Below, piece after piece: positions 25,078-64,000 of a stretch of DNA of 64,000 nucleotides. Each line of letters begins with the position of its first letter. The stretch's first letter is position 1. Below the pieces are notes generated by a model that made no database searches, had not been told where the DNA came from, and saw only the letters and a list, made by a program, of their open reading frames with translations. The stretch is from Candidatus Poseidoniales archaeon (GTDB lineage Archaea > Thermoplasmatota > Poseidoniia > Poseidoniales > Thalassarchaeaceae), in assembly GCA_028283505.1 (NCBI GenBank), contig JAPOFX010000001.1, positions 137,127-201,126 on the forward strand, in the 5' to 3' direction. The position numbers and the translations under genes were made by a program.

Positions 25078-26298
25078 TTACGTCCAATAAGCCTCTCTGA
25101 TCGCTTGATTTGTTTCCATACACAGTACTACGTCAGACGGCCTCTCATCCATCTGTTGTCCACCCCTCAGGTGATCGATAATTGGTTGCACATTGCTTTC
25201 ATTAACGACACCCCATCCAACTTGGGTGCATGGCGCTACGGGCGAAATAGGCATAGTCCCGGACAATGGGTCCCAGGTCGATGAAGAGGGGTACCAAGCA
25301 GACAAATTGAGAGCATCTCTCAGGTCATCATTCGTTACATTGAGTCCTTCCCCTGAGACTAAGAGTCCCATTCTGGTTATTGGGTCGGCTCCAGAAGAAT
25401 AGTCCCCGAACTCAGCCCTCAATGCCAGTATGATCTTCGATAGCAATCCCGCAGTCCTGGGAGTGGCAAATGATGTTCCTGAGGTCTCGTGGTATCCGTC
25501 GATATCGTCATGATTCGGTAGTATCTGGGTCCAATCGGCGGCAATGTCAGGGTAAGAACCACTCATTGTTTCCTTCTGATCATCCCCCTCCTCGGCATAT
25601 CCAGAAATCCCAATGCTCCAGGGCGGGCCAGCGGTTGAGTCTTGAACGGCAGGAGAAGGAGAGTTGTCAGCAGCGCCAGCATGAATCTTCTTATTTTCCA
25701 CAACGGCGACCCTTGTGGCATCTTCTATTCCGGGGACCGGAACAGATCCGATCGGCCCAAAACTGGTAGTAATTATATCTACAAGAGGCTGATTTGCGGC
25801 TGCCAGAACAGCAGCATCACTGAACCCTTCAACGAAAAATATCACTGCATCGGGGTTTGCATCCAGAACTGCCCCGGTAACTGCCGTTCCATGACCATCT
25901 TGGGGATCATCCAGTATTGGGATATCAGTCCCATCGTCAGGGGAGGTTCCGATTATTCTCGTGCCTCTAAACCAGACAATGTCAGAGGTGGTGATCTGGT
26001 CCCAGCAATCTTCCTTGTCGGCGTCATATCTTTCTTGCCAGGTTCCTTCGGTACTAATGTCACAGATCATTGTAACATTCAATCCCTCGAGAAGTGAGGA
26101 GGGAAAGGATTCGTTCATAATGAAGTGGTTGTGGTATACGTTAATTCCGGTATCAATTGGGGCGACAACGGTATATGCTTCCAAATCAGGTCTATCATCC
26201 GGCAATGGTACTGCAGTACCCTCCTCATCCCAAAGTATACAACCACTCAATAAAGGCAAAAGAAGAACCAACATAATGCCCTTCGCGGTGTACCTCAT
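25078..26298 (-). CDS. Secreted subtilisin-family (S8) serine protease, lipobox signal peptide
   Basis: Signal MRYTAKGIMLVLLLPLLSGC. Catalytic motifs PIDTGI (Asp), DGHGTAVTG (His) and SGTSFATPRTAG (Ser). Confidence 0.8.
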   Translation of the reverse strand: MRYTAKGIMLVLLLPLLSGCILWDEEGTAVPLPDDRPDLEAYTVVAPIDTGINVYHNHFIMNESFPSSLLEGLNVTMICDISTEGTWQERYDADKEDCWDQITTSDIVWFRGTRIIGTSPDDGTDIPILDDPQDGHGTAVTGAVLDANPDAVIFFVEGFSDAAVLAAANQPLVDIITTSFGPIGSVPVPGIEDATRVAVVENKKIHAGAADNSPSPAVQDSTAGPPWSIGISGYAEEGDDQKETMSGSYPDIAADWTQILPNHDDIDGYHETSGTSFATPRTAGLLSKIILALRAEFGDYSSGADPITRMGLLVSGEGLNVTNDDLRDALNLSAWYPSSSTWDPLSGTMPISPVAPCTQVGWGVVNESNVQPIIDHLRGGQQMDERPSDVVLCMETNQAIREAYWT

Positions 26299-34265: not shown

Positions 34266-35384
34266 TCAATATTTTATTACAGACGAATCAATACTATCTG
34301 ACCAGAGATGAACTCCTCCTTCCAGATTATATACGCCATTGACATCCCATCCATTTTGCGTCAGGTACCTAACTACAGCTCCTGATCTACCTCCAGTTCT
34401 GCAGTAAACTACTATGTCCATATCATTGGGAATTTCATTCATTCTATCTGGGACAGAAGTATGAGTGATTCTTAGGTCCGTCCCTTCCAAGGAGACAATC
34501 GCTTCCTCTGACTCTGATCTAACATCAAGTAGGAAAAACTTCCATCCTCCATCCCTACGGTCTACGAATTCACTTGGAGTAACTGTCTTCATCTGTATCC
34601 CTTCCTTCCCTATTTCCGAGGTGCGCACTCTCCCGGGAATTGAATCGAATGACAGGACCCTAGTAATCATTGTCAGTGAATCTATCGTCAATAGCTTACC
34701 TCTCAGAACTTCCCCCACTCCTAGAATCACCTTTATTGCCTCTGTGGCTTGAATTGTTCCTACAATTCCAGGAAGGATTCCGAGAACACCAGCTTCTGAA
34801 CAATTTGGTGCCAATTCAGGAGGTGGGGGAACAGGAAATAGATCCCTGTAATTCGGGCCTTCTTCAAAGTTGAACGTTGATACCTGCCCCTCAAATCTGT
34901 GTATGCTACCAAAAATCCAAGGCTTACCTAATTTTTCACATACATCTCCAATTAGGTATCGTGAGGAAAAATTATCGGTTCCATCAATCACTATGTCGTA
35001 TTTTTCGATCATGGAATCAGCATTCTCTGTATCCAGTCTAGATACATAGACATCAACTTCAACCTGTGGATTCAACTCGTTCAATCTTTTCTTCGCAGAT
35101 AGAGCCTTAGGCTCGCCAACCGAGGATGTTGAGTGAATTATCTGCCTTTGTAGATTCGAGGACTCCACGACATCATCGTCAATGATCCCAATCCTTCCAA
35201 CACCAGCCGCAGCGAGATACATCATTGCTGGAGAACCAAGACCGCCAGCTCCTACCACCAATACAGATGACTCTAGAAGCTTGATTTGACCCTCCTCGCC
35301 AACTTGTGGGAGAACTATGTGCCTGGCATATCTCAGGCGTTCGTTATCCGATAACTCCTCTGACACAGATCCCCCCTGGAGCAT
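34266..35384 (-). CDS. MoeB/ThiF/UbaA-type E1-like adenylyltransferase fused to a C-terminal rhodanese domain
   Basis: RYARHIVLPQVGEEGQ, nucleotide loop VVGAGGLGS, and a C-terminal rhodanese domain with active-site loop CRTGGRS. Confidence 0.8.
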   Translation of the reverse strand: MLQGGSVSEELSDNERLRYARHIVLPQVGEEGQIKLLESSVLVVGAGGLGSPAMMYLAAAGVGRIGIIDDDVVESSNLQRQIIHSTSSVGEPKALSAKKRLNELNPQVEVDVYVSRLDTENADSMIEKYDIVIDGTDNFSSRYLIGDVCEKLGKPWIFGSIHRFEGQVSTFNFEEGPNYRDLFPVPPPPELAPNCSEAGVLGILPGIVGTIQATEAIKVILGVGEVLRGKLLTIDSLTMITRVLSFDSIPGRVRTSEIGKEGIQMKTVTPSEFVDRRDGGWKFFLLDVRSESEEAIVSLEGTDLRITHTSVPDRMNEIPNDMDIVVYCRTGGRSGAVVRYLTQNGWDVNGVYNLEGGVHLWSDSIDSSVIKY

Positions 35385-38608: not shown

Positions 38609-38743
38609 TTATTTTCGGTCAGACTGTCTACTATGTTAATCTTTGATTGATACCATCATTTACCCATTGATAAATAATTGTTGATGCCAAATCTTGGAAT
38701 GACTAGTCCGAAGCCCTAAACGTTACCAGCATTAGCCGAGCAC

Positions 38744-41700
38744 ATGGCGGGACGCAGGGCGACGGTGGTCTCGTTAATCGTTCTGCTAATGTTAGTCCCA
38801 ATGGCGTCCTCAAATCTTCATCCTTCTTTTAACAAGAAAGGAGGCCAAGACGCGGACGGCGTTTGGACATCCAGCGCAGAGTTAGATCTCCATTCCGGGT
38901 GGTGGGAGCATTGGAGTAGGGACAGAGATAGAAACTCCCTAGATGATAGACTGGAGTGGATCCTTGAACAGCAAGAGGACTTCCAGAAAGATTGGTGGAA
39001 GAGAGCTGACACCGGTTTCGCAAGGGTAATTGTAGATTATAATCACCACCCATCTGATGCGGATGTTTCGGCGCTAGAAGGATTAGGTGTGGAAGTCACA
39101 TTCCGCCCGAAATATTTGGATTCAGTAATAGCAACAGCTCCCATCCAATCAATCACCTCCTCAGAAGGCATCCGTTCGCTCACTGGGGTTGTGATGATAG
39201 AGGATTTGGGATTAGCAGAACCCCACATGGCCGAGGCCATCCCAAACATGGGGGTAGATCTTGTCTGGAACGATTTTGGTTTTGATGGAACCGGCTCCGT
39301 AGTAGCTGTTCTGGACACGGGAGTCAGAGGAGACCACGAGGGCTTGAACGATATGGATGATGAGCCATTTACAACAGGTTGCGAGCAACCTAGCCCGGAT
39401 CCTCTGGACCCGAACCCGATCTTCGTCGATTGCGATCCAAAGATTATAGCATTCTATGACGCAGTCTTGATGGACGCAGAACAAGATCCATCGTCATCTT
39501 ATGATTCTGGCACCCATGGAACACACGTAGCCGGGATTGCTGCTGGAACTGGAGGAGGGCAAGCAGACCCTTCAACCGGTCAGAGGCATGTTGGAGCTGC
39601 CCCCGGGGCCTTTTTGATCAATATCTTGGCGTGTTGTGACGGGGATATCGAGGATGTAATTCAAGGCGCACAATGGGCAATCGAAAACAAAGACAAGTAC
39701 GGTATCGACATTTTGACCTCATCTCTCGGGGAACAACAACTAGAAGTCCATTTTGACAATGATGGAAGCTCAGCATGGAGTAGGCAGATGGACGCAGTGG
39801 TGGAGGCAGGGATAATTACAACTCTGTCTGCCGGGAATGAGTTTGGGGGAGCCACTTTTGCTGGCTGCAATACAATAGACAGCCCTGGTGATGCCCAACT
39901 TCCGGTTACTGTAGCCAGCCTGGATAAGGATCTAGGACTAGCAATATACAGTAGTAGAGGATACACTTCAGATGGCAGGGTGAAGCCCGATGTGGCTACA
40001 ATCGGATCGAACATCATGGCTCCTGATGCCGCAACAAGTGATGGCTACACGTCAAAGTCAGGAACTAGCATGGCAACCCCACTGATGGCGGGAATTGCCG
40101 CGCTGATGGTTGAAGCTAATCCTGATATCACTCCCGCTGAATTCAAAGATATCATATCTGCACACTCAATTGAGAGAGACCTGCAACTCTTGGATGATCC
40201 GGGTTTTAACGACTGCAGTCTCTTGGAGACACGTCCAGATAACGAGTTCGGATATGGTCAGGCAGACCCAATAGCTTTCGTAGAAGCCGCTGGTAGTATT
40301 GACAGGACACTGAATGTTTCGATGAATCTCGAGACCCTGCAGGAGATTGGAAACCAGTCATATGTCTCTGGTACAGCCTCTGGAGTTGCTCCCGGAATGG
40401 GCATCGTAGAAGTAAGAGTGGGAGGAGGGGATTGGAAAGGAGCCGCCGACATAAAGGGAGATTGGAGTGAATGGAGAGTAAAGCTTGATCCCCATTTAGA
40501 ATCTGGAAATTCTACGATTTATGCCAGACTTGTAGTTTCAGAGGACAGTATTTCGCCAGTAGACGCAAGGAGGGTCATCTTGGTAGATGGAGATGCTTCT
40601 GATGCGATGTCGGGAGATTTTATGCAATTCGGACTCTCTGTATTCTTGTTCCCATTTTTGTGTGCCGTAGCACTAATTTCATTCGTTGCTCTCAGGGAAA
40701 GGTGGGACAAGAAGATCGACCTCTCGACAAAGAGCTCTGATTCAACGTCTAAGTTTAGGAAAACTCTAGAAGCTGTTAATCCCCTTCACTATCCAGGTTA
40801 TCTTGGATCAGCTGTTGAGTCTTGGAAAGGAGGGAAGTCACTTACCGAGAACCAATTCAGAAGGTATGTCTCACTTTCTATCCTGTACACTGCTCAAGGA
40901 CTTCCACAGGGATTCACCTACGTGGCGTTTCCTGCATTCCTGGCTGTTAACGATGTCAGTCCAGTCGCCATAGCACAACTCTGGGCAGCAATAGCATTGC
41001 CATGGACATTCAAATTTGTATGGGGCCCGATGGTGGACGGTATTCAAGCTCCTGACTACGGTAGAAGGAGGCCATGGATTTTATTTGCACAGACAGGCAT
41101 GGTGGTAACACTAGGGTCCTTGCTCTTTGTTTCCGATTTGGCTCAATCCATACAATTAGTAACTTTGATGCTTTTCATCCACAATCTCTTCTCATCTTTA
41201 CAAGATGTGGGTGTCGACGCACTAGCTGTAGACGTATTACAGCCAGACGAAGTTGCCAAGGCGAATGGATTCATGTTTGCCGCCAAGAGAGCGGGATACA
41301 TCCTTGGTGGAGCGATACTTGGAATAATGGCCACTAAATTTGGCATCAAATCAGCCATAGTGATTCAACTCCCATTGTTAGTAATTATCATGGCACTCCC
41401 ATTGTTCCTAAGAGAGAGGCCAGGAGACAAGCTCTTCCCATGGAGTGCCGCGCGAAGATCCAGCCTTTGGGATGCTCAAGAACAGAATTCTGATGAGAAT
41501 GAAGATGAAAGCTCGGACAATACTGTGTTAGAGATTCCATGGATGGAAAATGGGGAAGAAGATCCCTACAGAGCTGCAAATTGGACCGCAAGGAACTTAA
41601 TCTCAAGAAAAATCACTCTCCCTGCGGCTGTCCTTTGGGTATCAATTGTGCTTATTCTTCTGGGGATGGTAGTTTATATCGGAGGTGTGTTACTTGAGGA

Positions 41701-42559
41701 GAACTGGCGAGATCGCCCCGTTTTATTCATGGACATAGTAGATTTCGCAGTGGTATCTCTCTCCGCAGTAGTGATACTACAGCTATCCCAGAAATTAGGT
41801 CTAAGACTCCCCATGGTCCCAAATCCTTTTTCCAACGCAATGACGGGGCCTGCTGTTACGTCATACAATATCGTGAAAGGTTTCTCATTAAGGTCCTCTT
41901 TCCTACTCATATTCCTCTGCCTTCTCTCGGAACTGTATCTTTTTGTCGACCCCATCGTGCTTGATATTTTCATCAATGAGGCTGGCTGGGAGATGGACAA
42001 ATACAGCGCTGTTATGGGAGGTATTGTGATTGCTTTCCTGATGGCGGGGCAGTTGATAGGTGGATTCTTGGGCGATAGATTCGGCGTCAGGGAGGTTGCA
42101 ATGATAGGATTCACACTCTTGGCTCTGGCTAATGCGGGGCTGGCTCTGTTGCAGGGATATTGGGAGAATACAACCATCATGGTTGCCTACCTTTGCCTTA
42201 GAGCAATTATCAATGGATTGGCTTGGATCTCAATTATATCCGTATCTATGCGCCTCACCTACAGCAAAGCTGGTGGCACCCAATTTACAGCATACATGTC
42301 GATGTTCAATCTCTCCGGGGTAATCGCACTTAGTTTAACGGGGAAGGCGATTGAAATTATGGATTACATCTCAGCCTTGTATCTTGGAGCCGCGCTAACC
42401 CTGATGACTGTGATATTCCTTGTGTTCATTGACCCTGACGAGTGTGATAGGGTACTAGAAGGAAGGCTAGAGGGGGGGGATGGAGAAGTTTACGAGGCTG
42501 ACATGGGAGAGGTTCCCGGCTGGTGGGAGGATGAAGAACCGGATGCTGTCGCTTCATGA
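38744..42559 (+). CDS. Fusion protein: secreted S8 subtilisin (with I9-like propeptide and Ig-like domain), TM anchor, and AmpG-like MFS permease
   Basis: Signal MAGRRATVVSLIVLLMLVPMASS. Catalytic triad motifs VAVLDTGV, SGTHGTHVAG and KSGTSMATP. Anchor helix FGLSVFLFPFLCAVALISFVAL. MFS signature ILYTAQGLPQGF..LPWTFKFVWGPMVDG..GRRRPWIL. Uninterrupted 3816-nt frame. Confidence 0.8.
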   Translation: MAGRRATVVSLIVLLMLVPMASSNLHPSFNKKGGQDADGVWTSSAELDLHSGWWEHWSRDRDRNSLDDRLEWILEQQEDFQKDWWKRADTGFARVIVDYNHHPSDADVSALEGLGVEVTFRPKYLDSVIATAPIQSITSSEGIRSLTGVVMIEDLGLAEPHMAEAIPNMGVDLVWNDFGFDGTGSVVAVLDTGVRGDHEGLNDMDDEPFTTGCEQPSPDPLDPNPIFVDCDPKIIAFYDAVLMDAEQDPSSSYDSGTHGTHVAGIAAGTGGGQADPSTGQRHVGAAPGAFLINILACCDGDIEDVIQGAQWAIENKDKYGIDILTSSLGEQQLEVHFDNDGSSAWSRQMDAVVEAGIITTLSAGNEFGGATFAGCNTIDSPGDAQLPVTVASLDKDLGLAIYSSRGYTSDGRVKPDVATIGSNIMAPDAATSDGYTSKSGTSMATPLMAGIAALMVEANPDITPAEFKDIISAHSIERDLQLLDDPGFNDCSLLETRPDNEFGYGQADPIAFVEAAGSIDRTLNVSMNLETLQEIGNQSYVSGTASGVAPGMGIVEVRVGGGDWKGAADIKGDWSEWRVKLDPHLESGNSTIYARLVVSEDSISPVDARRVILVDGDASDAMSGDFMQFGLSVFLFPFLCAVALISFVALRERWDKKIDLSTKSSDSTSKFRKTLEAVNPLHYPGYLGSAVESWKGGKSLTENQFRRYVSLSILYTAQGLPQGFTYVAFPAFLAVNDVSPVAIAQLWAAIALPWTFKFVWGPMVDGIQAPDYGRRRPWILFAQTGMVVTLGSLLFVSDLAQSIQLVTLMLFIHNLFSSLQDVGVDALAVDVLQPDEVAKANGFMFAAKRAGYILGGAILGIMATKFGIKSAIVIQLPLLVIIMALPLFLRERPGDKLFPWSAARRSSLWDAQEQNSDENEDESSDNTVLEIPWMENGEEDPYRAANWTARNLISRKITLPAAVLWVSIVLILLGMVVYIGGVLLEENWRDRPVLFMDIVDFAVVSLSAVVILQLSQKLGLRLPMVPNPFSNAMTGPAVTSYNIVKGFSLRSSFLLIFLCLLSELYLFVDPIVLDIFINEAGWEMDKYSAVMGGIVIAFLMAGQLIGGFLGDRFGVREVAMIGFTLLALANAGLALLQGYWENTTIMVAYLCLRAIINGLAWISIISVSMRLTYSKAGGTQFTAYMSMFNLSGVIALSLTGKAIEIMDYISALYLGAALTLMTVIFLVFIDPDECDRVLEGRLEGGDGEVYEADMGEVPGWWEDEEPDAVAS

Positions 42560-42809
42560 TCACCTAAAGTCCGCGAATACGGACTTCCTATTTTTCAGCC
42601 AGACTGTATGTCCATACTGCGTCAGAGCTGCTATGACTCTTAAGGCGAAAAATTTCACATATACTGAGGTCAACCTTGATAGATTCGAAGGCCTGAGAGG
42701 TGAAGTAGTATCGAAGACAGGACATAGGACTGTTCCGGTGGTCTTTGACCTACGTGGGACTGAACCAATTTTTGTGGGAGGTTCGGACCATCTCATTGAC
42801 TATCTGTGA
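42531..42809 (+). CDS. Glutaredoxin/NrdH-like small redoxin
   Basis: CPYC active site in FLFFSQTVCPYCVRA, then TVPVVF and GGSDHL. The start is ambiguous (ATG at 42480, 42531 or 42543), and all candidates overlap the end of the preceding gene. Confidence 0.7.
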   Translation: MKNRMLSLHDHLKSANTDFLFFSQTVCPYCVRAAMTLKAKNFTYTEVNLDRFEGLRGEVVSKTGHRTVPVVFDLRGTEPIFVGGSDHLIDYL

Positions 42810-43410
42810 TATTTTCAGCTATGGAAGATATCATGTCCCTCATTTCTTCAAATTGGCCTAAATTTACCATGTGGCCCTTTTTGTGCTGAAACCTGGTGAC
42901 AGGCCATCCAGATTCTTCGAATATCTCGATATGTTCCATGCCTGCGTCAAGTGAAACTAAATGATCGCTTTCTCCATGCATCCAAATTACCGGTCGCGGC
43001 TTTAGAAATGGAAGCGAATCCCTCAATTCATCAGGTCTTGCGGTCTTTGTAGCAATCAATATCAGCCCGACAATTGAATTACTTGCCTCAGTCTCTAGTA
43101 AGGCCGATGCCATCGCACCTCCTTGCGAGAATCCCCCAACAATTATTGGACCATCGGGCAGTATCTCTAAGATTGCAGAAATTGACTCTTCCATTTGATT
43201 TAATGACTCATCCCTGGTGACGCCGTCTTCGAAAAGCCACCATGCAAAACCCCCTCTTGTGGGGTGTCTGATTTTCGCTTGCGGACACAAAGTCGACCAT
43301 CCTTTCGGGGTCAGGCTTCTCGCAAGATTCTCCATTTTCTGAGACGTGCCGGTCATTCCATGCATCATAATGAGCGTACCCTTGCTCATGCGATCACTCA
43401 TAGATTCCAT
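42793..43410 (-). CDS. Alpha/beta hydrolase, phospholipase/carboxylesterase family
   Basis: Nucleophile elbow GFSQGGAMA, plus Asp and His regions (HGESDHLV, KKGHMV). About 200 aa. Confidence 0.7.
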   Translation of the reverse strand: MESMSDRMSKGTLIMMHGMTGTSQKMENLARSLTPKGWSTLCPQAKIRHPTRGGFAWWLFEDGVTRDESLNQMEESISAILEILPDGPIIVGGFSQGGAMASALLETEASNSIVGLILIATKTARPDELRDSLPFLKPRPVIWMHGESDHLVSLDAGMEHIEIFEESGWPVTRFQHKKGHMVNLGQFEEMRDMISSIAENITDSQ

Positions 43411-44360
43411 TGGAAAACCAATGCCCCAGCAACTTTGAGGTGGATGTATGAGGATTGGCCACGAACCGTGACTGTGAGTGAGTAATCCCCTGAGTTGGAA
43501 GGAATAGTGCCTATCGCTCCCTTCTCAGTCGCTCCAGACCCCCATGCACGAGTCAGGGGAGAGGCTCCGGCATGGTCTTTCATTGTCAGGGAGCCAGATG
43601 ACGCACCGTTAGATGCTATCTCGACGTCAAGATACCAAACCAAGGTGCCCCAATCTCCTTCTGTTGGATGTCCATCATCAAAAAATGAGTCATATATTTC
43701 CTGATCATTCTCCTCATAAAGCCGATCAATTAAGTCTCTAGCCCTGTAGAAGAACACATCCCCCTGATAGTCCGATCTGGCGACATTTAGATTCATTCGT
43801 AATTGATTCTGCCCATCAGAGTCTTCCCATACCAGCCTTTCTAGGAATCCATCACTTCCGCTAAATGTATACTGCAATTCATGGCCCTCTGAGGATTCCG
43901 CACTAACTCTGGCATTCCCATTGTTTATTGAAACAGTAGTAGCACTCCATTCTTGGCCAAATAGAATGAATGACCATTGATCACCAACAGTCCATGGAAA
44001 TGAGAATACTTGTTGCGGTATTCCATTTTCGTATACAGATAGTCCATCAATTGTCATTCTTCCGAGAAATGGATTATGGTTAATCACTGCGTGCCTCTGT
44101 GCCTCTCTCTCTGAAGAAATTCCGACTTGATAATCCCCTGATTCGTTGTCTATCTCTGCAACAACTAACCTCGCGCTGTCTTCTCCAAATTGTGGTGTAA
44201 TAAACGTGTATAGCCAATTGTTCCCAACTTCCCACTCAGGGAGGAGTATGTCTCCATTGGTAGTTTCTCCCGATTGTCCTGAGTCCCCAGTCTCAATGCA
44301 ACCGGCGAGAATGCACATCAACAACAAACAAGCCATCCCAACCGCAGACCTGCCTCTCAT
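43398..44360 (-). CDS. Secreted hypothetical lipoprotein
   Basis: Signal [21 protein letters not shown] from the ATG at 44360. The ORF-track GTG at 44411 would add 17 residues. No catalytic motif recognised. Confidence 0.55.
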
Positions 44361-44407
44361 GGCGATGCGACAGGGGGCGCAGTCAAGAGACTGACGCTTT
44401 TTTTTAA

Positions 44408-46471
44408 TCACAGTAACCCGGCGATAACAACTGAAACAATTGACATTAGCTTAATTAAAATGTTCAGTGAGGGCCCGCTAGTATCCTTGAATGGATCACC
44501 TATTGTGTCTCCGACAACTGCCGCGGAGTGAGCTTCGTCTCCTTTCTCGGCACCGGGTATCTCGCCTTGCTCAATCGCCTTCTTGGCATTGTCCCATGCG
44601 CCTCCTGCATTGGCCATGAATAGTGCCATAAGGACCCCGGTGGCTGTTGCGCCAGCCAGAGTTCCACCGAGCGCTGCGGGTCCGAGAATGATTCCGATTA
44701 TCACAGGACTCATTATTGCAACTAATCCTGGTAGGACCATCTCACGAAGAGCCGCTTGTGTCGAAATATCGACGCAAGTTGCACTGTCCGGTTCAACTCC
44801 ATCACGACCTTCCAATAGTCCATCAATCTCCCTAAATTGCCTACGAATCTCAGTAATCATGTCTTCTGCTGCACGCCCAACAGATTTCATTGTCATGGCA
44901 GCCACTACGAATGGCAGGGCGCCACCGATTAGTAGTCCTATGACGACATCCGGCTCAGTCAAGGAAAGATCTGCGGCCTCAAGTCCTGCACTGGTTTTGT
45001 ATGCAGCGAATAGTGCCAAGGCGGTTAAAGCGGCACTGCCAATAGCGAATCCTTTCCCAATCGCAGCGGTTGTGTTCCCGATAGAATCTAGTCCGTCTGT
45101 GATATCTCTAACTTGCTTTCCTAGGCCTGACATTTCTGCAATACCTCCAGCGTTGTCTGCGACAGGCCCATATGCATCAACAGTCATTGTAACTCCAACT
45201 GTTCCAAGCATCCCCATTGCGGCCATTGCAATGCCGTACAAGCCTGCATCTCCACCTCCCATCACATCATTAGCGCCATAGATACCTGCGGCCATTAGAA
45301 GTACTGGGATGAATACGGATTGCATCCCCACTGCAAGGCCAGCGATTGCATTTGTCGCACTTCCTGTCTTCGAGGCCTCTCCAATGTAAGGAATTGCTTC
45401 AACCTTTATTCCGAAAACCGGTTCGATTCCTGTGTAGTATTCAGTTACCAAACCAATCAGGATACCCACGAGTGATCCAATCGCCACAGCGTAGATTACT
45501 TTAGTCTCCAAATCTAGGTAGTCTAGAGCGAGATATCCTCCTCCGATAAACAATGCAGCACCAATGAAAGTTGTGTTTCGTAATGCTGCGCCAGGGTCCA
45601 TGTTCTTCATCGCGGTAATCGAAAAGACTCCAATTATGGAAGCGACGTAACCGACAACAGCTAGGACAATTGGAATCATCAGATACTCGTCACCCAGAGT
45701 CTCCGAGCTAGCAGCAGCGATTACCATTGCAGCGATGATGCTACCAACGAAGGACTCGAAGATGTCCGCACCCATGCCAGCTACGTCTCCTACATTGTCG
45801 CCGACGTTATCAGCAATTACTCCGGGATTTCTGGGATCATCCTCTGGGATTCCCGCTTCTACCTTCCCGACGAGGTCTGCCCCGACATCTGCGGCTTTCG
45901 TGTAAATTCCTCCACCGACTCTGGCGAATAGAGCAATAGAAGAAGCACCCATTCCAAATCCAGCAATATTACCAACCGTAAGGAATCCGTCACCATCGGA
46001 TGGGCCAGTCAAGAAATACATTAGAGATATCCCGAATAGTCCTAGCCCGCCGACCGCCAAGCCCATGACAGCACCGCCGTTGTAAGAAGTAGTGAGGGCA
46101 GCGGCCTGGCCACCATTTGCAGCAGCTTGGGCAGTTCGTCCATTAGCGCTCGTGGCCGACTGCATACCACTGAATCCTGCAGCAACGCTGCAAAAAGCAC
46201 CGATAATGAAGGCAACCATGGTCTCGAAACCAAGGCCGTTCTCTTCACCACCGAACAGTAGTAGTGCAGATACCACTGCAATGAAAACAGCTAACATCCT
46301 ATATTCAGCCATAAGGAAGGCCATTGCGCCATCCTGTATTCTACCTGTTATTGTAGCTACAGTCTTGTCCTCAATCTCAATTGAATCGACTTTCTTGTAA
46401 AGCATGAATGCGATAAGTAGGCCAAATATTCCTACTCCCATTCCAATTGTTCCTAGTGTATCTCCTTCCAT
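44408..46471 (-). CDS. hppA: Membrane-bound ion-translocating pyrophosphatase (K+-dependent subtype by the GNTTAA motif)
   Basis: [29 protein letters not shown] and [18 protein letters not shown] (Ala rather than Lys in GNTT[A/K]A), plus [10 protein letters not shown] and [10 protein letters not shown]. Confidence 0.9.
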
Positions 46472-46549
46472 GTGGTATCAACCCGTATCGGTCCGGCGAC
46501 AAAAGTCCCACTTATAATTCAAGCCGTAAAATAACACAATTAGGTACAA

Positions 46550-47452
46550 CTACGACATATGTCTCTGTATGACATCGGCAAAAGCCTCCAGAACTCCAGC
46601 CCCATCGTGATCTTTCTGAAAGGAGAGCATCTCCGCTTCAGTGATATGCCCCCACTCAAATGCTCTCTGAATTCTATGCCTGGCGGCCTCAGGATGGAAC
46701 TGGACCCCCCATGCAGGCATCTTGCGTTGGCGTGAATCTACTACTCTTACAGCAGTAACATGATTATGTTCGGCGGACCCCAAGAGAATGCAATTTTCAG
46801 GGACTGTAATCACATGATCCTGATGAGAATAAACTACCTCTGGGCCTCTACCACTTTGCCATCTGGACTCAAATAACTCATCCGACATGCCATCCTCATT
46901 CAATACCATCTCCCATATTCCACTCGACATTTTTTCTGCTCGTGTGACTTCCGAACCTAATGATTTGCAAAGAAGCTGATGACCAAAACAAATACCCAGA
47001 GTCGGAGATCCCGAGGTTGCTGCCACCCTCATTAAAGAAGACGCACTTTCCATCCATCCCTCCCACATCGTGACATTCCTTCTAGAACCAGAACAAACTA
47101 CCGCGTCCACGCCTAAATTACTCAACCAATGTAACATTCCCGCGTCATCCAAACCAATCGGCAGAGCAATTCTGGAAAATTTGGCTGTGTTCTCACCCAT
47201 TGTTACTTTGCAACTTCTCCAAAATTCGTATTCATCGTCCCATTCTGGAACGTCGTTACGATCGATGAAGAATAGTCCTTCATCTGCTGCTTTACGTCCA
47301 GATTCAAGTGACTGCATCTGAGGGGTCAGGAGAAAAACATCTACATTTCCAAACTCCGCAATTGGCTGGATGACCTCTTGATTCCCTCCGTGTCCGAACT
47401 CCGATCTTTCTACCAGAAGGTCCAGAAGTAGGACTCTGACGTTGCGGTTCAT
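46550..47452 (-). CDS. Class I glutamine amidotransferase-like protein
   Basis: Nucleophile elbow GICFGHQLL and C-terminal QFHPE. The ATG at 47452 (MNRNVRVLLLDL) is preferred over the GTG at 47503. Confidence 0.65.
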   Translation of the reverse strand: MNRNVRVLLLDLLVERSEFGHGGNQEVIQPIAEFGNVDVFLLTPQMQSLESGRKAADEGLFFIDRNDVPEWDDEYEFWRSCKVTMGENTAKFSRIALPIGLDDAGMLHWLSNLGVDAVVCSGSRRNVTMWEGWMESASSLMRVAATSGSPTLGICFGHQLLCKSLGSEVTRAEKMSSGIWEMVLNEDGMSDELFESRWQSGRGPEVVYSHQDHVITVPENCILLGSAEHNHVTAVRVVDSRQRKMPAWGVQFHPEAARHRIQRAFEWGHITEAEMLSFQKDHDGAGVLEAFADVIQRHMS

Positions 47453-47511
47453 AGCACCCGGAAGAAGCGATTGTTTGAAAGGCTCCCGCTTGTTCAGGCA
47501 CACGAGTGAGC

Positions 47512-50888: not shown

Positions 50889-53800
50889 CTACTCATCAAA
50901 GAGTGCTTCGATATCTTCTTGGCTTAGAGCATCATCTACAGACATTACCACTTCTTCCGAGGGCTCACTCTTTCCCTTAGATACATCTGGAACATCCTCA
51001 TCATCCATGGCATCTGTGTCTACAACAATAGATTCAGTCTCTTGCTCTCCCGAGTCCATTTGGACATCTGTGTCAGATGTAACTTGCGAGTCGATTATTT
51101 CCGAATCTTGTTCCGTATTTTCAGTGGCAGGCTCGAGTGATTTTGATTTCGGCCCCTCCCTCCTGCTTTGCGAGTCAAATGGGTCATAATCAGGATCGTC
51201 AAAGGCGTCATCCACTGAAACTTTCTTCAGACTCTTGGTCTGGTCCATCCCTGATACTAGTCCGCTATCACTAGGTGGACTTCTGTTCTTAACTAGCATG
51301 AAACCTCCAGAAAGTGCAATTAATACTACAACAATTATCATTATGCCATATGACGAGACGAACTCGCCAAGGCTAAATGGCGCTGCTGAGACAGTCAGAG
51401 TAAGAGTTGCAGATGACCCTTGTCCTTCGTCTAACGCTGTCATACTAATCCCTCTGTTCCCAGAGCCAACGAACGACCATTCGATCCACTTTCCCTGAAT
51501 ATCAACATCGTTGGCGGCGTCACCATCGCCATCACTATCAACAGAGGTATCCATGTCCCAGTTATACACCATATTCTCCATATCTAAGATGGAGTCACTG
51601 GTCCCATTAGCGCTGAAGAAAACAATTTCTCCCTCCACTGGAGTAAACGTGCTTGCTGAAACTTTGGGAAAGGGATTGACATTTCTCACATCGATTGGAA
51701 TCTCTATCATCGCAGAGCTTCCATCGTCATCAGTTACGTGAAAAACAATCATACTGGGTGAGGTGGTAGCGTCTGGCCACGCCATCTGAAGTGTTCTGGA
51801 CTCAATGTCGCAGTCATCAGCTGCATTTCCAGATCCGTCTGAGTCAACCGTCGGTTGTAGGTCATAGCAATTCTGTAGTGTCAGCTGATCACCAGCAGTA
51901 TCTATGGTATCAATTGTTATGGAAATCTCCGAATCCTCCGCCACTGGCAGAGGGTCTGCAACTGGGCTAATCTGAGGCTCAAGGTTGATAATTTCGATAG
52001 GAATAATCAGTGATTCTGTACTCGCCCCGTCATTATCTATTACCTGTAGGGTTGCTAGATGCAAACCGGAGGTATGGTATGTATGCTGCACCGTACTTTT
52101 TCTGCCCTCAAATGTAATTACCTGGTCTGGATTATTTTCTGCATCGGGACTCCAGAGATGTACAAGTGTGGACAAGTCATTTTCAGAGTCATCAGCCATG
52201 CCTTCAAAAATTAGTAAATCGCCTTCATTGGCGATGTAAACTCCTCTGCTGTCAGGGACCATCCTATTTCCCTCCTTCCATACCTCTGCCCTGGGGTTCG
52301 TTGGTGCTATATTTCGAACTTCGACAGTTTTGTTTGAGTACCCAATATCCCCGTCATCGTCAACAGCTTCGACACTGATTGTGTATGCTCCTTCTTCATC
52401 AGGTGTCACAGTGCAATATACTCCGACTTGCCCTTCTTGACATGGGTAATCTGAAATCCACAGAATATCCATTGGTGCTTGTGGGTTTTGAGTATCGATA
52501 TCGCTTCTTTCCTCGACGTTAAACTGCAATGGAGAGAGAACGTTAGTCCACTCATATTCGGACTCGATAGTAATCTCAGGAGGTCGGTTCACAATCTCAA
52601 TTACGTCACCAATGACTGCCAAGTCATTTTCATTATCTGTGAATTCTATAACGATGTCGAATATTCCGTCGTCGTCCCACTCAAACTCGACAATGCACTC
52701 TTCTCCACCAGATATTTCCACTATCTGATCCTCACTCTCGATAAAGAAATTACATCCAATAAACTCTCCACCATCTGGATCGTACGAGGAACTAGCATCA
52801 AGAATCACAGCAGATTTCGTAAGAGACTGAGCTGGCATATCTAAAGTCGCCACAGGAAGCCTCCCTATCCACAATGAAAATACACCGTTATTGTTGGATC
52901 TGTCACCATCATCAGTTATTGACTCATTAGGATCCACTTGGAAAGAAAGCGAAATTTGCCCTATTGGGTAGGCATTAGGTACTGTCCAATTGACTTCTAC
53001 GATAGCTTGCCCTAAGCTCGGGAGTGAGGGAACTTGGGCAGTCTGCACAGATCCATCAGGAGACTCCACATTCATTGTAGTCGCGGGAGAGGGCAGAAGC
53101 CCTCTATTCTGTATCGGCATGTAGAATCTTAACGTATCCTGGGGAACAGCATTGAAGCCAGTGGAGGACGCCAGGGTTGTAGTTGCTCCCCCCCTTGTCC
53201 TCTCAACAGTAACACCCGAGGAAATAGCCACCAGGTCAACAGCACTCACATTAGGGTCGATGGTGATTGTCGATACTCCGACAATCTTCTCGGAGGGGAT
53301 CCATGCAATTACACCATGACTTCCTGCCTCGCTGCCCCCCTGCGAGTCGTCTATGGAATTTCCGGAATTGAACTCCACATACGCCGTTCCGTTGGATGAG
53401 GTAGTCACTGTTCTGATATCCCCGTCAATTCCATATCGGAACTCCACCTCCTGGCTTCCGGCAGATAGTGCCGAACCATCCTGAGTTACAGTAAGTATTG
53501 CTGTCGTGTTTAAATTGAGTGGGGAAAGAGGAAATTCCAAATCAACTGATATTTCCTTACTTCTTTGAACATCTTCCGGAATATAATTTTGAAGCTCATG
53601 AAATGCATTAATCCCATCTATGATATCAGTACTAGATGACACGTCTCCTCTGACAGCAGGGCAGAACCACCTATACCCGTCAGCCGAACCATTAGCATCG
53701 AATGTTGTCACGTTGTAGGATTGCTGACATTGTGAGTATGGTGTTCCCGGGGCCCCTCTCGACATCACTTGCCAACTCCTCACCTCGCTAGAATCTGAGT

Positions 53801-54452
53801 CTGCCGGGATGTCCACGAAATCACTTGAGCCCTCATATTCTGTCTCTTGGGAATAGCTTGATGTCCAATAGTCTCCGACAGTGAGCGGGAAGTCATAACC
53901 TTCAGTAGGAGGGGAATAAGTTTGAGTAATTGTCAACTCTGCTACATCTACATTTATGGTCCACCAAAAAAACCTATATCCGAAGTCAATCTCTATTGTT
54001 GCTTCTTGTTCGATTACTGCTAAGTCAGAGGCACGAATCAGCTCAATAGTATCCATTTCTATCTCGAGATCTCCATTGTTGCCATCAAGATTGACATTCT
54101 GTGCTTCATAACTTCCTTGGGACTGGGCCTCATATACTAATGTAGATCGATTATCAACAGTAGTGGTGTAGATATCAGTGACTGTCCGATCCAATGTACC
54201 AGTCAGGTATTGAACATCCGTCGAAACTCCAGATGAACCTACAAAGTCTCCGACATCTAGGTATCCATCGTAGACCCACCTATCTCCTACTCTCCAGGTA
54301 GGTATGTCAGCTATTGCCGTATTCCTTTGAGATGAACTCGATACCTTTTCTTCAATCCCTACCTCATCTAGATCCTCCGGAGATATCAGGAACACACATT
54401 GCGATATCAGTATCATTGCCATCATTACGGCCGACGCGGTAGCTCTACCCAT
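50889..54452 (-). CDS. Giant surface protein with CARDB and multiple PKD-like domains, one TM helix and an acidic cytoplasmic tail
   Basis: Signal MGRATASAVMMAMILISQCVFLIS from the ATG at 54452 (ORF-track start 54506). CARDB-like PIQNRGLLPSPATTMNVE..DDGDRSNNN. PKD-like ILDASSSYDPDGGEF and repeats. TM helix IMIIVVVLIALSGGFMLV followed by about 150 aa of D/E-rich tail. Confidence 0.7.
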   Translation of the reverse strand: MGRATASAVMMAMILISQCVFLISPEDLDEVGIEEKVSSSSQRNTAIADIPTWRVGDRWVYDGYLDVGDFVGSSGVSTDVQYLTGTLDRTVTDIYTTTVDNRSTLVYEAQSQGSYEAQNVNLDGNNGDLEIEMDTIELIRASDLAVIEQEATIEIDFGYRFFWWTINVDVAELTITQTYSPPTEGYDFPLTVGDYWTSSYSQETEYEGSSDFVDIPADSDSSEVRSWQVMSRGAPGTPYSQCQQSYNVTTFDANGSADGYRWFCPAVRGDVSSSTDIIDGINAFHELQNYIPEDVQRSKEISVDLEFPLSPLNLNTTAILTVTQDGSALSAGSQEVEFRYGIDGDIRTVTTSSNGTAYVEFNSGNSIDDSQGGSEAGSHGVIAWIPSEKIVGVSTITIDPNVSAVDLVAISSGVTVERTRGGATTTLASSTGFNAVPQDTLRFYMPIQNRGLLPSPATTMNVESPDGSVQTAQVPSLPSLGQAIVEVNWTVPNAYPIGQISLSFQVDPNESITDDGDRSNNNGVFSLWIGRLPVATLDMPAQSLTKSAVILDASSSYDPDGGEFIGCNFFIESEDQIVEISGGEECIVEFEWDDDGIFDIVIEFTDNENDLAVIGDVIEIVNRPPEITIESEYEWTNVLSPLQFNVEERSDIDTQNPQAPMDILWISDYPCQEGQVGVYCTVTPDEEGAYTISVEAVDDDGDIGYSNKTVEVRNIAPTNPRAEVWKEGNRMVPDSRGVYIANEGDLLIFEGMADDSENDLSTLVHLWSPDAENNPDQVITFEGRKSTVQHTYHTSGLHLATLQVIDNDGASTESLIIPIEIINLEPQISPVADPLPVAEDSEISITIDTIDTAGDQLTLQNCYDLQPTVDSDGSGNAADDCDIESRTLQMAWPDATTSPSMIVFHVTDDDGSSAMIEIPIDVRNVNPFPKVSASTFTPVEGEIVFFSANGTSDSILDMENMVYNWDMDTSVDSDGDGDAANDVDIQGKWIEWSFVGSGNRGISMTALDEGQGSSATLTLTVSAAPFSLGEFVSSYGIMIIVVVLIALSGGFMLVKNRSPPSDSGLVSGMDQTKSLKKVSVDDAFDDPDYDPFDSQSRREGPKSKSLEPATENTEQDSEIIDSQVTSDTDVQMDSGEQETESIVVDTDAMDDEDVPDVSKGKSEPSEEVVMSVDDALSQEDIEALFDE

Positions 54453-54502
54453 ACATCCTCTGTGGAGAAGGGGCAAATCAATGTGACTATCGACTGAGCT
54501 AA

Positions 54503-55243
54503 TCACATCGCGCGATAGTCAGGGAGGTCTGCAAGCTCATCTTGTATGAATTGGACAGCCTCTAAGATCTGATCCTTGGCCCTTGCTCCAGTGATAACCA
54601 TCTTTCCACTTCCGAATATCAGGCAAACTACTTTTGGGTAGTCCAGCCTGTAAATCAAACCAGGGAACTGCTCAGGCTCATACTCGACCTTGTCAAAAGG
54701 CAGATGGAATGTAAGATTATTCAGATTGAGCCTTCTTGGAAGGGCGGCCAATGGCTCTCCTTGTTTAATTCCCCTAATCCTTGGATCTTCATTTTCAACC
54801 TCCTCATCGGTCGCCGCCCTGATCCCACCAGCTTCATCAATCACTTTAGTGTTGATATCATCCATTTTGGCTACTCCAGTGTAGTCTTCAGGGAAGAAGA
54901 GTGAGTAGGTAGCGACCATGTTCTGAACTTCTATGTCGACATCAGCAACATCCCATGTGGAAATTCCCGCCGCTCTCAGGTCCCCAATCATTCTCTCGAT
55001 ACCCGTCTCGATGTTCTGTTGGTTCTTACCGCCCGTGCAAACAGCTCTGCCAGATCTGAACATAAGTATTGCCAGTTTTGGATCCACCACCCTGTAAACT
55101 ACACCGGGGAATTGTTCAGGCTCGTATTCACAGTTCAGTTGAATTGCAATATCTGGGAGGTCCAGCTCCTCGGCAACCCTGGTTGACGCTACAACATTCA
55201 CTACAGTTAGGCGTTCTTCATCACTTAGCATGAGTCCTCGCAC
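54503..55243 (-). CDS. tbp: TATA-box-binding protein with an insertion in the second repeat
   Basis: Two TBP repeats: VVNVVAS..CEYEPEQFPGVVYRV..LMFRSGRAVCTG and VQNMVAT..VEYEPEQFPGLIYRL..LIFGSGKMVITG. The start is GTG 55243 or, more likely, ATG 55231. Confidence 0.9.
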   Translation of the reverse strand: MRGLMLSDEERLTVVNVVASTRVAEELDLPDIAIQLNCEYEPEQFPGVVYRVVDPKLAILMFRSGRAVCTGGKNQQNIETGIERMIGDLRAAGISTWDVADVDIEVQNMVATYSLFFPEDYTGVAKMDDINTKVIDEAGGIRAATDEEVENEDPRIRGIKQGEPLAALPRRLNLNNLTFHLPFDKVEYEPEQFPGLIYRLDYPKVVCLIFGSGKMVITGARAKDQILEAVQFIQDELADLPDYRAM

Positions 55244-63613: not shown

Positions 63614-63703
63614 GATATCCCGACGGAATGATATGACTTCAACCCAACTATGCAGGAGCATTGAGTGCGAAGTGCGAAATAGCACTATTTCTGCCCAGCC
63701 ACC

Positions 63704-64000
63704 ATGTCTGGCATTAGGTCTACCTGTGTCGCACTCGTTACAATCATGCTCTCCTCTGTTTCCCTGTCTGGATGTATACATGATGCAATTATTGAGAATC
63801 TGAGTGCCCCATATCCAAAATGGTACGAAGAAATGGAATTTATCGATGACCCGATGAGTCACACAGACTCCTGTTTCAGTACTCCTTGTGTGAGAAATTT
63901 CACAATAGGAGAGCCATTTTCAGATGAAATCTGGGACGAGACTGGCAACAAATGGGCGGTATTTGGGAATGTCGAGGGAGGCAATTGCTGTGAACACTAC
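63704..64000 (+). CDS. Partial CDS (3' end outside window): secreted lipoprotein, N-terminal 99 aa
   Basis: Not in the ORF track because it has no stop within the window. The ATG at 63704 opens a stop-free frame to base 64000: MSGIRSTCVALVTIMLSSVSLSGCIHDAIIENLSAPYPKWYEEM... This gives a basic n-region, a hydrophobic core and an LSGC lipobox like three other proteins here. Confidence 0.6.
   Translation, partial: MSGIRSTCVALVTIMLSSVSLSGCIHDAIIENLSAPYPKWYEEMEFIDDPMSHTDSCFSTPCVRNFTIGEPFSDEIWDETGNKWAVFGNVEGGNCCEHY

Follow-up and report, generated by a model that had tools for sequence, protein, structure and literature searches.

A subtilase fused to an AmpG-like permease in Marine Group II archaea, with a possible role in coupled digestion and import

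Peptidases and transporters are found together in several known arrangements. At the mammalian brush border, ACE2 or aminopeptidase N (APN) sits beside B0AT1 (SLC6A19), a secondary transporter that imports the products of the peptidase, and in the PCAT exporters of the ATP-binding cassette (ABC) type an N-terminal C39 peptidase and the transporter share one polypeptide. Here we describe a gene that joins the two activities in another manner, found in a 64,000-nt stretch of DNA from Candidatus Poseidoniales (hereafter the window, i.e. the whole stretch analysed: assembly GCA_028283505.1, contig JAPOFX010000001.1, positions 137,127 to 201,126 of the forward strand). It encodes a predicted surface subtilase (peptidase family S8) followed, in the same chain, by a permease of the Major Facilitator Superfamily (MFS):

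38744..42559 (+): whole S8–MFS fusion gene, 1271 codons plus stop

The ACE2/APN–B0AT1 pairs differ from this fusion in being non-covalent and eukaryotic and in using another transporter fold, whereas here the link is covalent. The PCATs differ in the side of the membrane and in both components: a cysteine peptidase on the cytoplasmic side serves a primary ABC exporter and cleaves a leader during export, while the fusion places its peptidase, by prediction, outside and uses an MFS permease; Pfam and NCBIfam scans of the protein returned neither C39 peptidase nor ABC transporter domains. Another pairing, of the lysosomal MFS dipeptide carrier MFSD1 with the single-pass glycoprotein GLMP (PMC11252000), is again non-covalent and eukaryotic, unlike the fusion.

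Each half of the protein also has described relatives of its own. Tk-SP of Thermococcus kodakarensis (PDB 3afg), a secreted protein without a permease, has the same catalytic domain, flanked by a propeptide-like domain at the N-terminus and a beta-rich one at the C-terminus. On the transporter side, the closest solved fold is AmpG, the anhydromuropeptide permease of E. coli and P. aeruginosa (PDB 9c3f, 8zgz, 9j9z; Transporter Classification 2.A.1.25, PAT), which like the fusion permease has 14 helices, though it carries no ectodomain and the host of the fusion is an archaeon; the best sequence match in the PDB is SLC33A1/AT-1 (9m0s, 9mun), a eukaryotic endoplasmic reticulum protein that handles acetyl-CoA, works in the other direction, has no fused enzyme and aligns over the N-terminal 150 residues only. 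The wider AmpG-like family carries acetyl-CoA, glutathione and siderophores, and RhtX and FptX, its characterised prokaryotic relatives, are importers. AmpG itself is a proton-coupled importer of substrates of roughly 0.5–1 kDa (PMC11568325). It recognises a disaccharide rather than a peptide. The first-pass annotation of the window had started from the premise that AmpG-type MFS proteins import peptide-containing molecules; given what AmpG recognises and how varied the substrates of the wider family are, that premise is weaker than claimed.

That annotation had also known of no described protease–MFS fusion. Full-text literature searches bear this out, in that we found no description of an S8–MFS or other peptidase–MFS fusion, and an archaeal fusion catalogue (PMC11237513) makes no mention of the S8–MFS fusion in its main text or in the supplements checked. 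Genomes of Marine Group II (MGII) have been reported to encode 1–4 extracellular S8 peptidases, plus M28 (PMC6864105), and 'subtilase' is among the highly transcribed MGII peptidases (PMC9723583); fusion to a transporter is mentioned in neither study. Automatic annotations already show both domains, some homologues being labelled 'subtilisin family serine protease/MFS family permease' by JGI. The architecture is thus real, conserved (see below) and undescribed in the literature found.

The reading frame runs uninterrupted from an ATG start at 38744 to 42559 on the forward strand and encodes 1271 amino acids, the open reading frame (ORF) list and the translation agreeing on the single frame first reported. 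Full-length fusion homologues fill more than 120 protein clusters at 63–99% identity in the protein database, each with both domains, and clusters and genome loci taken together span 54–99%. A species scan, using one genome per species, found 186 relatives, 80 of which were listed as loci, and nearly all of these 80 cover the whole query. With one exception the listed loci bear the label MGII, Poseidoniales or Thalassarchaeaceae, or the wider one of archaeal metagenome-assembled genome (MAG), and the window is 96% identical to MAG UBA130. Clustering at 50% identity left just two more fused representatives, one of them from Marine Group III (MGIII) at 47% identity; MGIII thus also has the fusion, at 44–47% identity to the window protein. 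A chimeric join, or an indel that reads through two neighbouring genes, would demand that the same accident recur in hundreds of independent assemblies, single-amplified genomes and MAGs from many studies, which show the identical architecture down to 44% identity; nothing was found in its favour (the database members include some short fragments from contig ends), and we rate its probability as negligible. Since the same architecture recurs in more than 120 clusters and nearly all of the 80 listed loci, an assembly artefact is excluded. The S8–MFS fusion is real, old and vertically inherited, a core gene of MGII.

The exception among the listed loci (L068, NZWI01000049.1) carries an S8–MFS gene at 65% identity under the label Candidatus Neomarinimicrobiota bacterium, probably a binning error in that MAG. 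Within the window itself, no further MFS of the fusion's clade turned up in a tblastn search.

The N-terminal half has the layout of a secreted, membrane-anchored protease:

38744..38812 (+): signal peptide, residues 1–23 (MAGRRATVVSLIVLLMLVPMASS), with a hydrophobic core at 5–23 and the family consensus MxGRxAxxASxxVLLFLxPLASS
38870..39253 (+): propeptide-like N-domain, residues ~43–170, common to the unfused S8 protein P0140 from residue 43
39287..40258 (+): subtilase (S8) catalytic domain, residues 182–505, Pfam PF00082, E 6e-44
nt 39314 (+): catalytic D191, Asp of the triad
nt 39515 (+): catalytic H258, His of the triad
nt 39836 (+): oxyanion N365, Asn
nt 40067 (+): catalytic S442, Ser of the triad
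40313..40582 (+): Ig-like (Big_7-like) domain, residues 524–613, which aligns to the Big_7 domain of P0140
40583..40696 (+): extracellular stalk, residues 614–624, and single anchor helix, residues 625–651, from the hydropathy core, a predicted helix and constancy of length
40697..40852 (+): basic cytoplasmic linker, residues 652–703, variable in sequence and length, with 12 K/R in 650–716

The signal peptide proposed earlier is consistent with its hydrophobic core and with the family consensus, and is predicted to be of Sec type because only one Arg is conserved in that consensus. For the same reason twin-arginine export was considered and rejected; a membrane protein of 15 helices, moreover, requires Sec insertion. 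The I9-like propeptide fared less evenly. No Pfam family, I9 and Tk-SP_N-pro included, matched residues 24–180 at E<=10, whereas the second of two AlphaFold2 (AF2) models of residues 72–1271, built with 20 sequences (A1) and with 104 sequences (A2), gave residues ~92–154 a beta-alpha-beta-beta pattern at a predicted local distance difference test score (pLDDT) of 90+, and Foldseek matched this N-domain to ProN-Tk-SP (3afg). A propeptide-like fold is thus predicted, and the I9 family assignment is not supported. The catalytic domain is clear: PF00082 scores 150.9 bits against a gathering cut-off of 21.8 with the profile covered in full (1–288 of 288), and the best PDB match is Tk-SP (E 2e-36). 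The triad D191/H258/S442 and the oxyanion N365 lie at exactly the residues first given for them and are invariant in 20 fused homologues, MGIII included, down to 44% identity. On this evidence the protein is an S8 peptidase (subtilase), S8A-like, and is predicted to be an active endopeptidase. The Ig-like domain drew no direct Pfam match, even at E<=10, and is recognised through its alignment on Big_7 of the unfused P0140, to which the ectodomain as a whole (residues 43–613) is homologous at 34% identity.

P0140 and a second unfused S8 protein, P0122, share the whole ectodomain and the C-terminal anchor helix with the fusion and stop right after that helix, without a permease. P0122 (672 aa; L089–L091, on nine Tara contigs) is 73% identical to the window ectodomain and lies in a gene context (SnoaL_2, GtrA) that differs from the fusion locus. 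Because both proteins end after the anchor helix, the MFS domain is not needed for anchoring.

Between the two halves, the anchor has a hydrophobic core at residues 631–649 (Kyte–Doolittle score 2.54) and is modelled by AF2 as a helix over 625–651; the basic linker with its 12 K/R in 650–716 follows, much as the first reading had it. Across the family the stalk is fixed at 11–12 aa and the anchor at 27 residues, and the linker varies from 35 to 75 aa; the fixed stalk suggests that the geometry of the protease relative to the membrane matters. The proposed topology, with the protease outside and both MFS termini inside, is consistent with the charge distribution (35 K+R on the proposed cytoplasmic segments versus 6 on the outside loops) and with the location of the GRRRPW and GDRFG motifs in loops predicted to be cytoplasmic.

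The permease half is laid out as follows:

40853..41407 (+): MFS N-bundle, transmembrane helices (TM) 1–6, residues 704–888, from Pfam, NCBIfam and PDB alignments and AF2 pLDDT 90+
residues 715–724: N-bundle motif YTAQGLPQGF
residues 756–778: N-bundle extended motif A, FKFVWGPMVD..GRRRPW
residues 820–826: N-bundle motif QDVGVDA
41408..41890 (+): central insertion, residues 889–1049, variable in the family, with AF2 helices
41891..42424 (+): MFS C-bundle, TM7–12, residues 1050–1227, with GDRFG at 1110–1114, from the TIGR00901 alignment to 1227 and AF2
42425..42556 (+): acidic cytoplasmic C-terminal tail, residues 1228–1271, 16 D/E in 44 residues, AF2 pLDDT <50

Profile searches of each half thus recover what had been proposed, Peptidase_S8 at 182–505 and MFS_1 from 712, the latter at 712–1025 plus a second stretch (E 5e-27; 95.2 bits against a cut-off of 33.4). 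The AF2 models arrange the permease as 14 helices in a 6+2+6 order, with pLDDT mostly 90+ in the second model, in agreement with the 14 helices and long acidic central loop counted by eye. The central insertion consists of that acidic loop (889–942), two extra TM helices (943–1017) and an amphipathic segment, and it is missing from a 12-TM relative, P0126. Of the 275 PDB matches that Foldseek gave at E<=0.001, those listed at the top are almost all MFS transporters. The C-terminal half belongs to the MFS.

Within the superfamily, AmpG holds ranks 1–4 in both Foldseek searches (E 1.6e-14); the nearest PDB sequences are human SLC33A1 (E 5e-11, TM1–5) and AmpG (E ~1e-10, TM1–6 only); Pfam Acatn (PF13000) matches residues 711–855 at 39.9 bits against 23.7, over profile positions 5–170 of 546 only; and the NCBIfam model of the AmpG family, TIGR00901, aligns over 706–1227 at 120 bits, with the RhtX/FptX model aligning over the N-half. 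All curated cut-offs of the AmpG models are missed by a wide margin, however (TIGR00901 120 versus 350 bits, NF008238 57 versus 756, NF008867 66 versus 656), as is that of the RhtX/FptX model (TIGR02718, 106 versus 356 bits). Residue by residue the picture is similarly divided. The extended motif A of AmpG (K..W.P..D....RRR.W) is common to the fusion permease, with AmpG K62, W65, P67, D70, R79/R80 and W83 corresponding to K757, W760, P762, D765, R774–776 and W778 of the fusion; D765 and GRRRPW (773–778) are invariant and lie in the predicted cytoplasmic loop between TM2 and TM3. The TM4 pair D125/D129 is conserved as D821/D825. In place of AmpG K132, however, the fusion has Ala828, as SLC33A1 does, and in place of Y152, needed for disaccharide binding, an invariant Arg849. 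The extra helix pair, too, is placed differently, being C-terminal in AmpG (6+6+2, vestibule TM13/TM14) and central in the fusion (6+2+6, residues 943–1017), where no hydrophobic segment follows TM12. The scores below the cut-offs, together with the loss of the K132 and Y152 equivalents, argue that this is an AmpG-like permease and not an AmpG, and on sequence grounds it is a member of the PAT/Acatn branch (AmpG/SLC33A1/RhtX). The AmpG-like assignment of the first-pass annotation stands at that level, and an assignment to AmpG proper fails.

The same comparison bears on whether the protein scavenges peptidoglycan debris or glycopeptides, the permease importing muropeptide-like fragments while the head trims attached protein or peptide. 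AmpG as closest fold, the shared extended motif A and the conserved equivalents of K62, D125 and D129 would fit such a role; the replacement of K132 and Y152 by Ala828 and Arg849 and scores far below the AmpG cut-offs would not, and to our knowledge S8 enzymes do not cut stem peptides containing D-amino acids. We consider this reading very improbable.

Conservation is unevenly spread along the protein. Mean identity within MGII is 90% for the S8 domain and 77–78% for the MFS bundles, but falls to 40–47% for stalk, anchor and linker, in which frame and stalk length are nevertheless kept; between MGII and MGIII the S8 domain averages 63%. In the 20 fused sequences, which include MGIII, the catalytic residues, motif A and the Asp pair of TM4 do not vary. 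As judged from these alignments, both halves are under constraint and the sequence that joins them is not.

We propose that the fusion couples digestion to import. A Sec signal peptide would take the N-terminal half out of the cell, where one anchor helix would hold a subtilisin-type endopeptidase just above the membrane on its 11–12-residue stalk; the chain would then re-enter the cytoplasm as the basic linker and continue into the 14-helix permease of the AmpG/SLC33A1/RhtX branch. Dissolved proteins and polypeptides would be cut at the cell surface by the tethered protease, and the adjoining permease, in this reading a proton symporter, would import the resulting oligopeptides before diffusion removes them, with the fusion setting one protease per transporter at nanometre distance. 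Protease activity, the direction of transport, a peptide substrate and kinetic coupling are what we infer here from the sequence. Large molecules (muropeptides, acetyl-CoA, glutathione, siderophores) are the known substrates of the branch; oligopeptides would fit among them, which is no proof. Taken together, we hold coupled digestion and import to be the best explanation of the fusion, at about an even chance of being correct.

Comparative support comes from relatives in which the same MFS clade carries other heads, which likewise follow a signal peptide and precede the anchor helix, the linker and the MFS domain. One group, represented by P0130 (L087 6001–8610; 869 aa; at least 57 clusters, from other MGII lineages), has a Peptidase_M28 head on the same plan. 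Its MFS is 36–50% identical to that of the window fusion; its head is a metallo-exopeptidase of family M28 and not a serine endopeptidase of family S8, and its permease has 12 helices, as judged by length, against 14. The flanks of P0130 are collinear with window positions 42480–47503, i.e. the genes downstream of the fusion, and comprise:

inverted: glutaredoxin, 50% identity to the window protein
esterase, 46% identity to the window protein
337-aa unknown protein, 50% identity to the window protein
H+-PPase, 85% identity to the window protein
GATase, 34% identity to the window protein

From this collinearity it looks as if the chassis (stalk, anchor helix, linker and AmpG-like permease) has kept its position and exchanged one peptidase head for another. 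That an unrelated peptidase came to sit on the same chassis at a collinear locus lends comparative support to digestion and import, and the exchange of peptidase for peptidase strengthens the case. A second group, P0410 and P0408 (~890–908 aa, Thalassarchaeaceae), likewise pairs an M28 ectodomain and an anchor helix with a membrane domain, here a much more divergent polytopic one, which has an AmpG-like motif (LRPLWAQPVD..PWGRRRSW) and only sub-threshold Pfam similarity (Acatn, E 2e-4).

Several observations weigh against it. In both AF2 models the S8 core has pLDDT <50, so that the active site is not placed relative to the permease vestibule. The permease falls below the curated AmpG and RhtX/FptX cut-offs given above, neither the NCBIfam scores nor the comparison of AmpG residues revealed any signature in its sequence that marks peptides as the substrate, and characterised relatives carry disaccharide-peptides, acetyl-CoA, glutathione or siderophores. 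Family membership does not fix the direction, since transport by SLC33A1 leads out of the cytosol. The gene neighbourhood is one of housekeeping functions (riboflavin, thioredoxin reductase, glutaredoxin, H+-PPase), without peptide-catabolic genes. Nor are all heads peptidases: in P0133 (660 aa), which lies on contigs over 1 Mb, an MFS domain of this clade follows a plastocyanin/azurin-type cupredoxin, and P0125, P0126, P0132 and P0134 carry on the same chassis a conserved ectodomain of ~230 aa that does not look like a hydrolase. The last of these heads contains Cys and has the motifs NMYxWGD, GYGEIE and FRMYYSD (alignment A3); it had no Pfam match, and the A3 profile found no match at E<=1 among PDB sequences.

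The cupredoxin and ~230-aa heads suggest that the chassis may be a general platform, whose head is not always a hydrolase, and in the fullest form of this reading the permease cargo would be unrelated to whatever head is displayed; the S8 head would be an ordinary protease of the cell surface, and the permease would carry a different metabolite. The range of heads on one chassis clade (S8, M28, cupredoxin and the ~230-aa domain) is what would then be expected, as are the 3-keto-disaccharide-hydrolase-like or FG-GAP domains found C-terminally in more distant MFS relatives, and the lack of a peptide signature noted above is in keeping with it. Display, however, would hardly call for 14 further helices, given that P0140 and P0122 hold the same ectodomain with a single one; peptidases of two unrelated families recur as heads, in one case through replacement at a collinear locus; and a stalk kept at 11–12 aa suggests that membrane geometry matters. 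We regard a platform with unrelated cargo as unlikely, though well worth bearing in mind. In a crude neighbour-joining tree of the MFS core the N-extended forms group together, apart from ~60 stand-alone permeases of 420–470 aa.

Subtilases such as LanP are extracellular maturation proteases, and this raises the reverse arrangement, in which an endogenous precursor (such as a peptide, lipid-linked intermediate or envelope component) leaves through the MFS domain and is matured outside by the tethered protease, by the logic of LanT/LanP or of the PCATs. The direction of an MFS transporter is unreadable from sequence, and the close solved relative SLC33A1 moves its substrate away from the cytosol. 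Against this, no precursor or biosynthetic genes lie nearby in the loci examined, the characterised prokaryotic relatives AmpG, RhtX and FptX import, and replacement by an M28 exopeptidase at a collinear locus fits scavenging better than specific maturation, so that we think export and processing quite improbable.

Returning to digestion and import, the variety of heads can be accommodated if the Poseidoniia (MGII and MGIII) possess modular 'ectodomain-tethered MFS importers', built on this chassis with S8, M28, ~230-aa or cupredoxin heads, of which those with a peptidase head would digest and import as one covalent machine. We put this broader formulation forward tentatively, as somewhat less probable than even.

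The locus reads, in order, E1 dehydrogenase, MoeB–rhodanese, thioredoxin reductase, riboflavin genes, fusion, glutaredoxin, esterase, the unknown protein, H+-PPase and GATase, and this order is kept in relatives at 64–71% identity. Immediately downstream lies:

42480..42809 (+): glutaredoxin-like gene, Pfam Glutaredoxin E 5e-13, sharing up to 80 nt with the 3' end of the fusion

Its true start is probably near residue 14–18 of the ORF. The adjacency of fusion and glutaredoxin is kept in the MGII relatives at 64–71% identity and, inverted, at the M28–MFS locus, and is absent at the MGIII locus; the SLC33A1 structure 9mun holds oxidised glutathione. A functional link between fusion and glutaredoxin was set aside, the gene being inverted at the one locus and absent at the other. 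Upstream, relatives have a GHMP-kinase-like gene between the ribB-like and fusion genes (L001 7032–7907; L003 7112–7963), which is absent from the window, where a 135-bp gap occupies 38609–38743. The MoeB/ThiF–rhodanese fusion (372 aa, 34266–35384, reverse strand) corresponds to the moeBR fusion of Ca. Poseidoniales in PMC11237513.

Elsewhere in the window there is a second, divergent subtilase of 406 aa (25078–26298, reverse strand; Pfam S8 E 6.6e-6), whose signal sequence resembles a lipobox (LLSGC) and whose triad (IDTGI, DGHGTAV, SGTSFATP) looks intact. Three further proteins were noted. One, of 803 aa (3656–6067, forward strand), combines EF-hand repeats with LDL-receptor class A repeats, which is unusual for an archaeon. 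The other two are large and probably lie on the cell surface: one of 932 aa (61064–63862, reverse strand), in which a Lamin-tail domain accompanies an amidohydrolase, and a CARDB/PKD protein of 1205 aa (50889–54506, reverse strand).

MGII, which are uncultured, rank among the most abundant archaea in the surface waters of the ocean. Small free-living cells that digest protein outside the cell face the loss of the products by diffusion, and how they profit all the same is a long-standing question in marine microbiology. That MGII feed on dissolved protein has been proposed repeatedly, on the strength of their peptidase gene counts and transcripts (PMC6864105, PMC9723583). A protease joined to a permease in a vertically inherited core gene offers a concrete answer to the problem of diffusive loss. 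Censuses of MGII peptidases and transporters may count the fusion gene in both categories. If the proposal is correct, a fusion of an outer-face enzyme to a secondary transporter would be added to the known ways of coupling hydrolysis and uptake, and free-living planktonic archaea would harvest dissolved protein without diffusive loss, in a way analogous to 'selfish' polysaccharide uptake but directed at protein and contained in one polypeptide.

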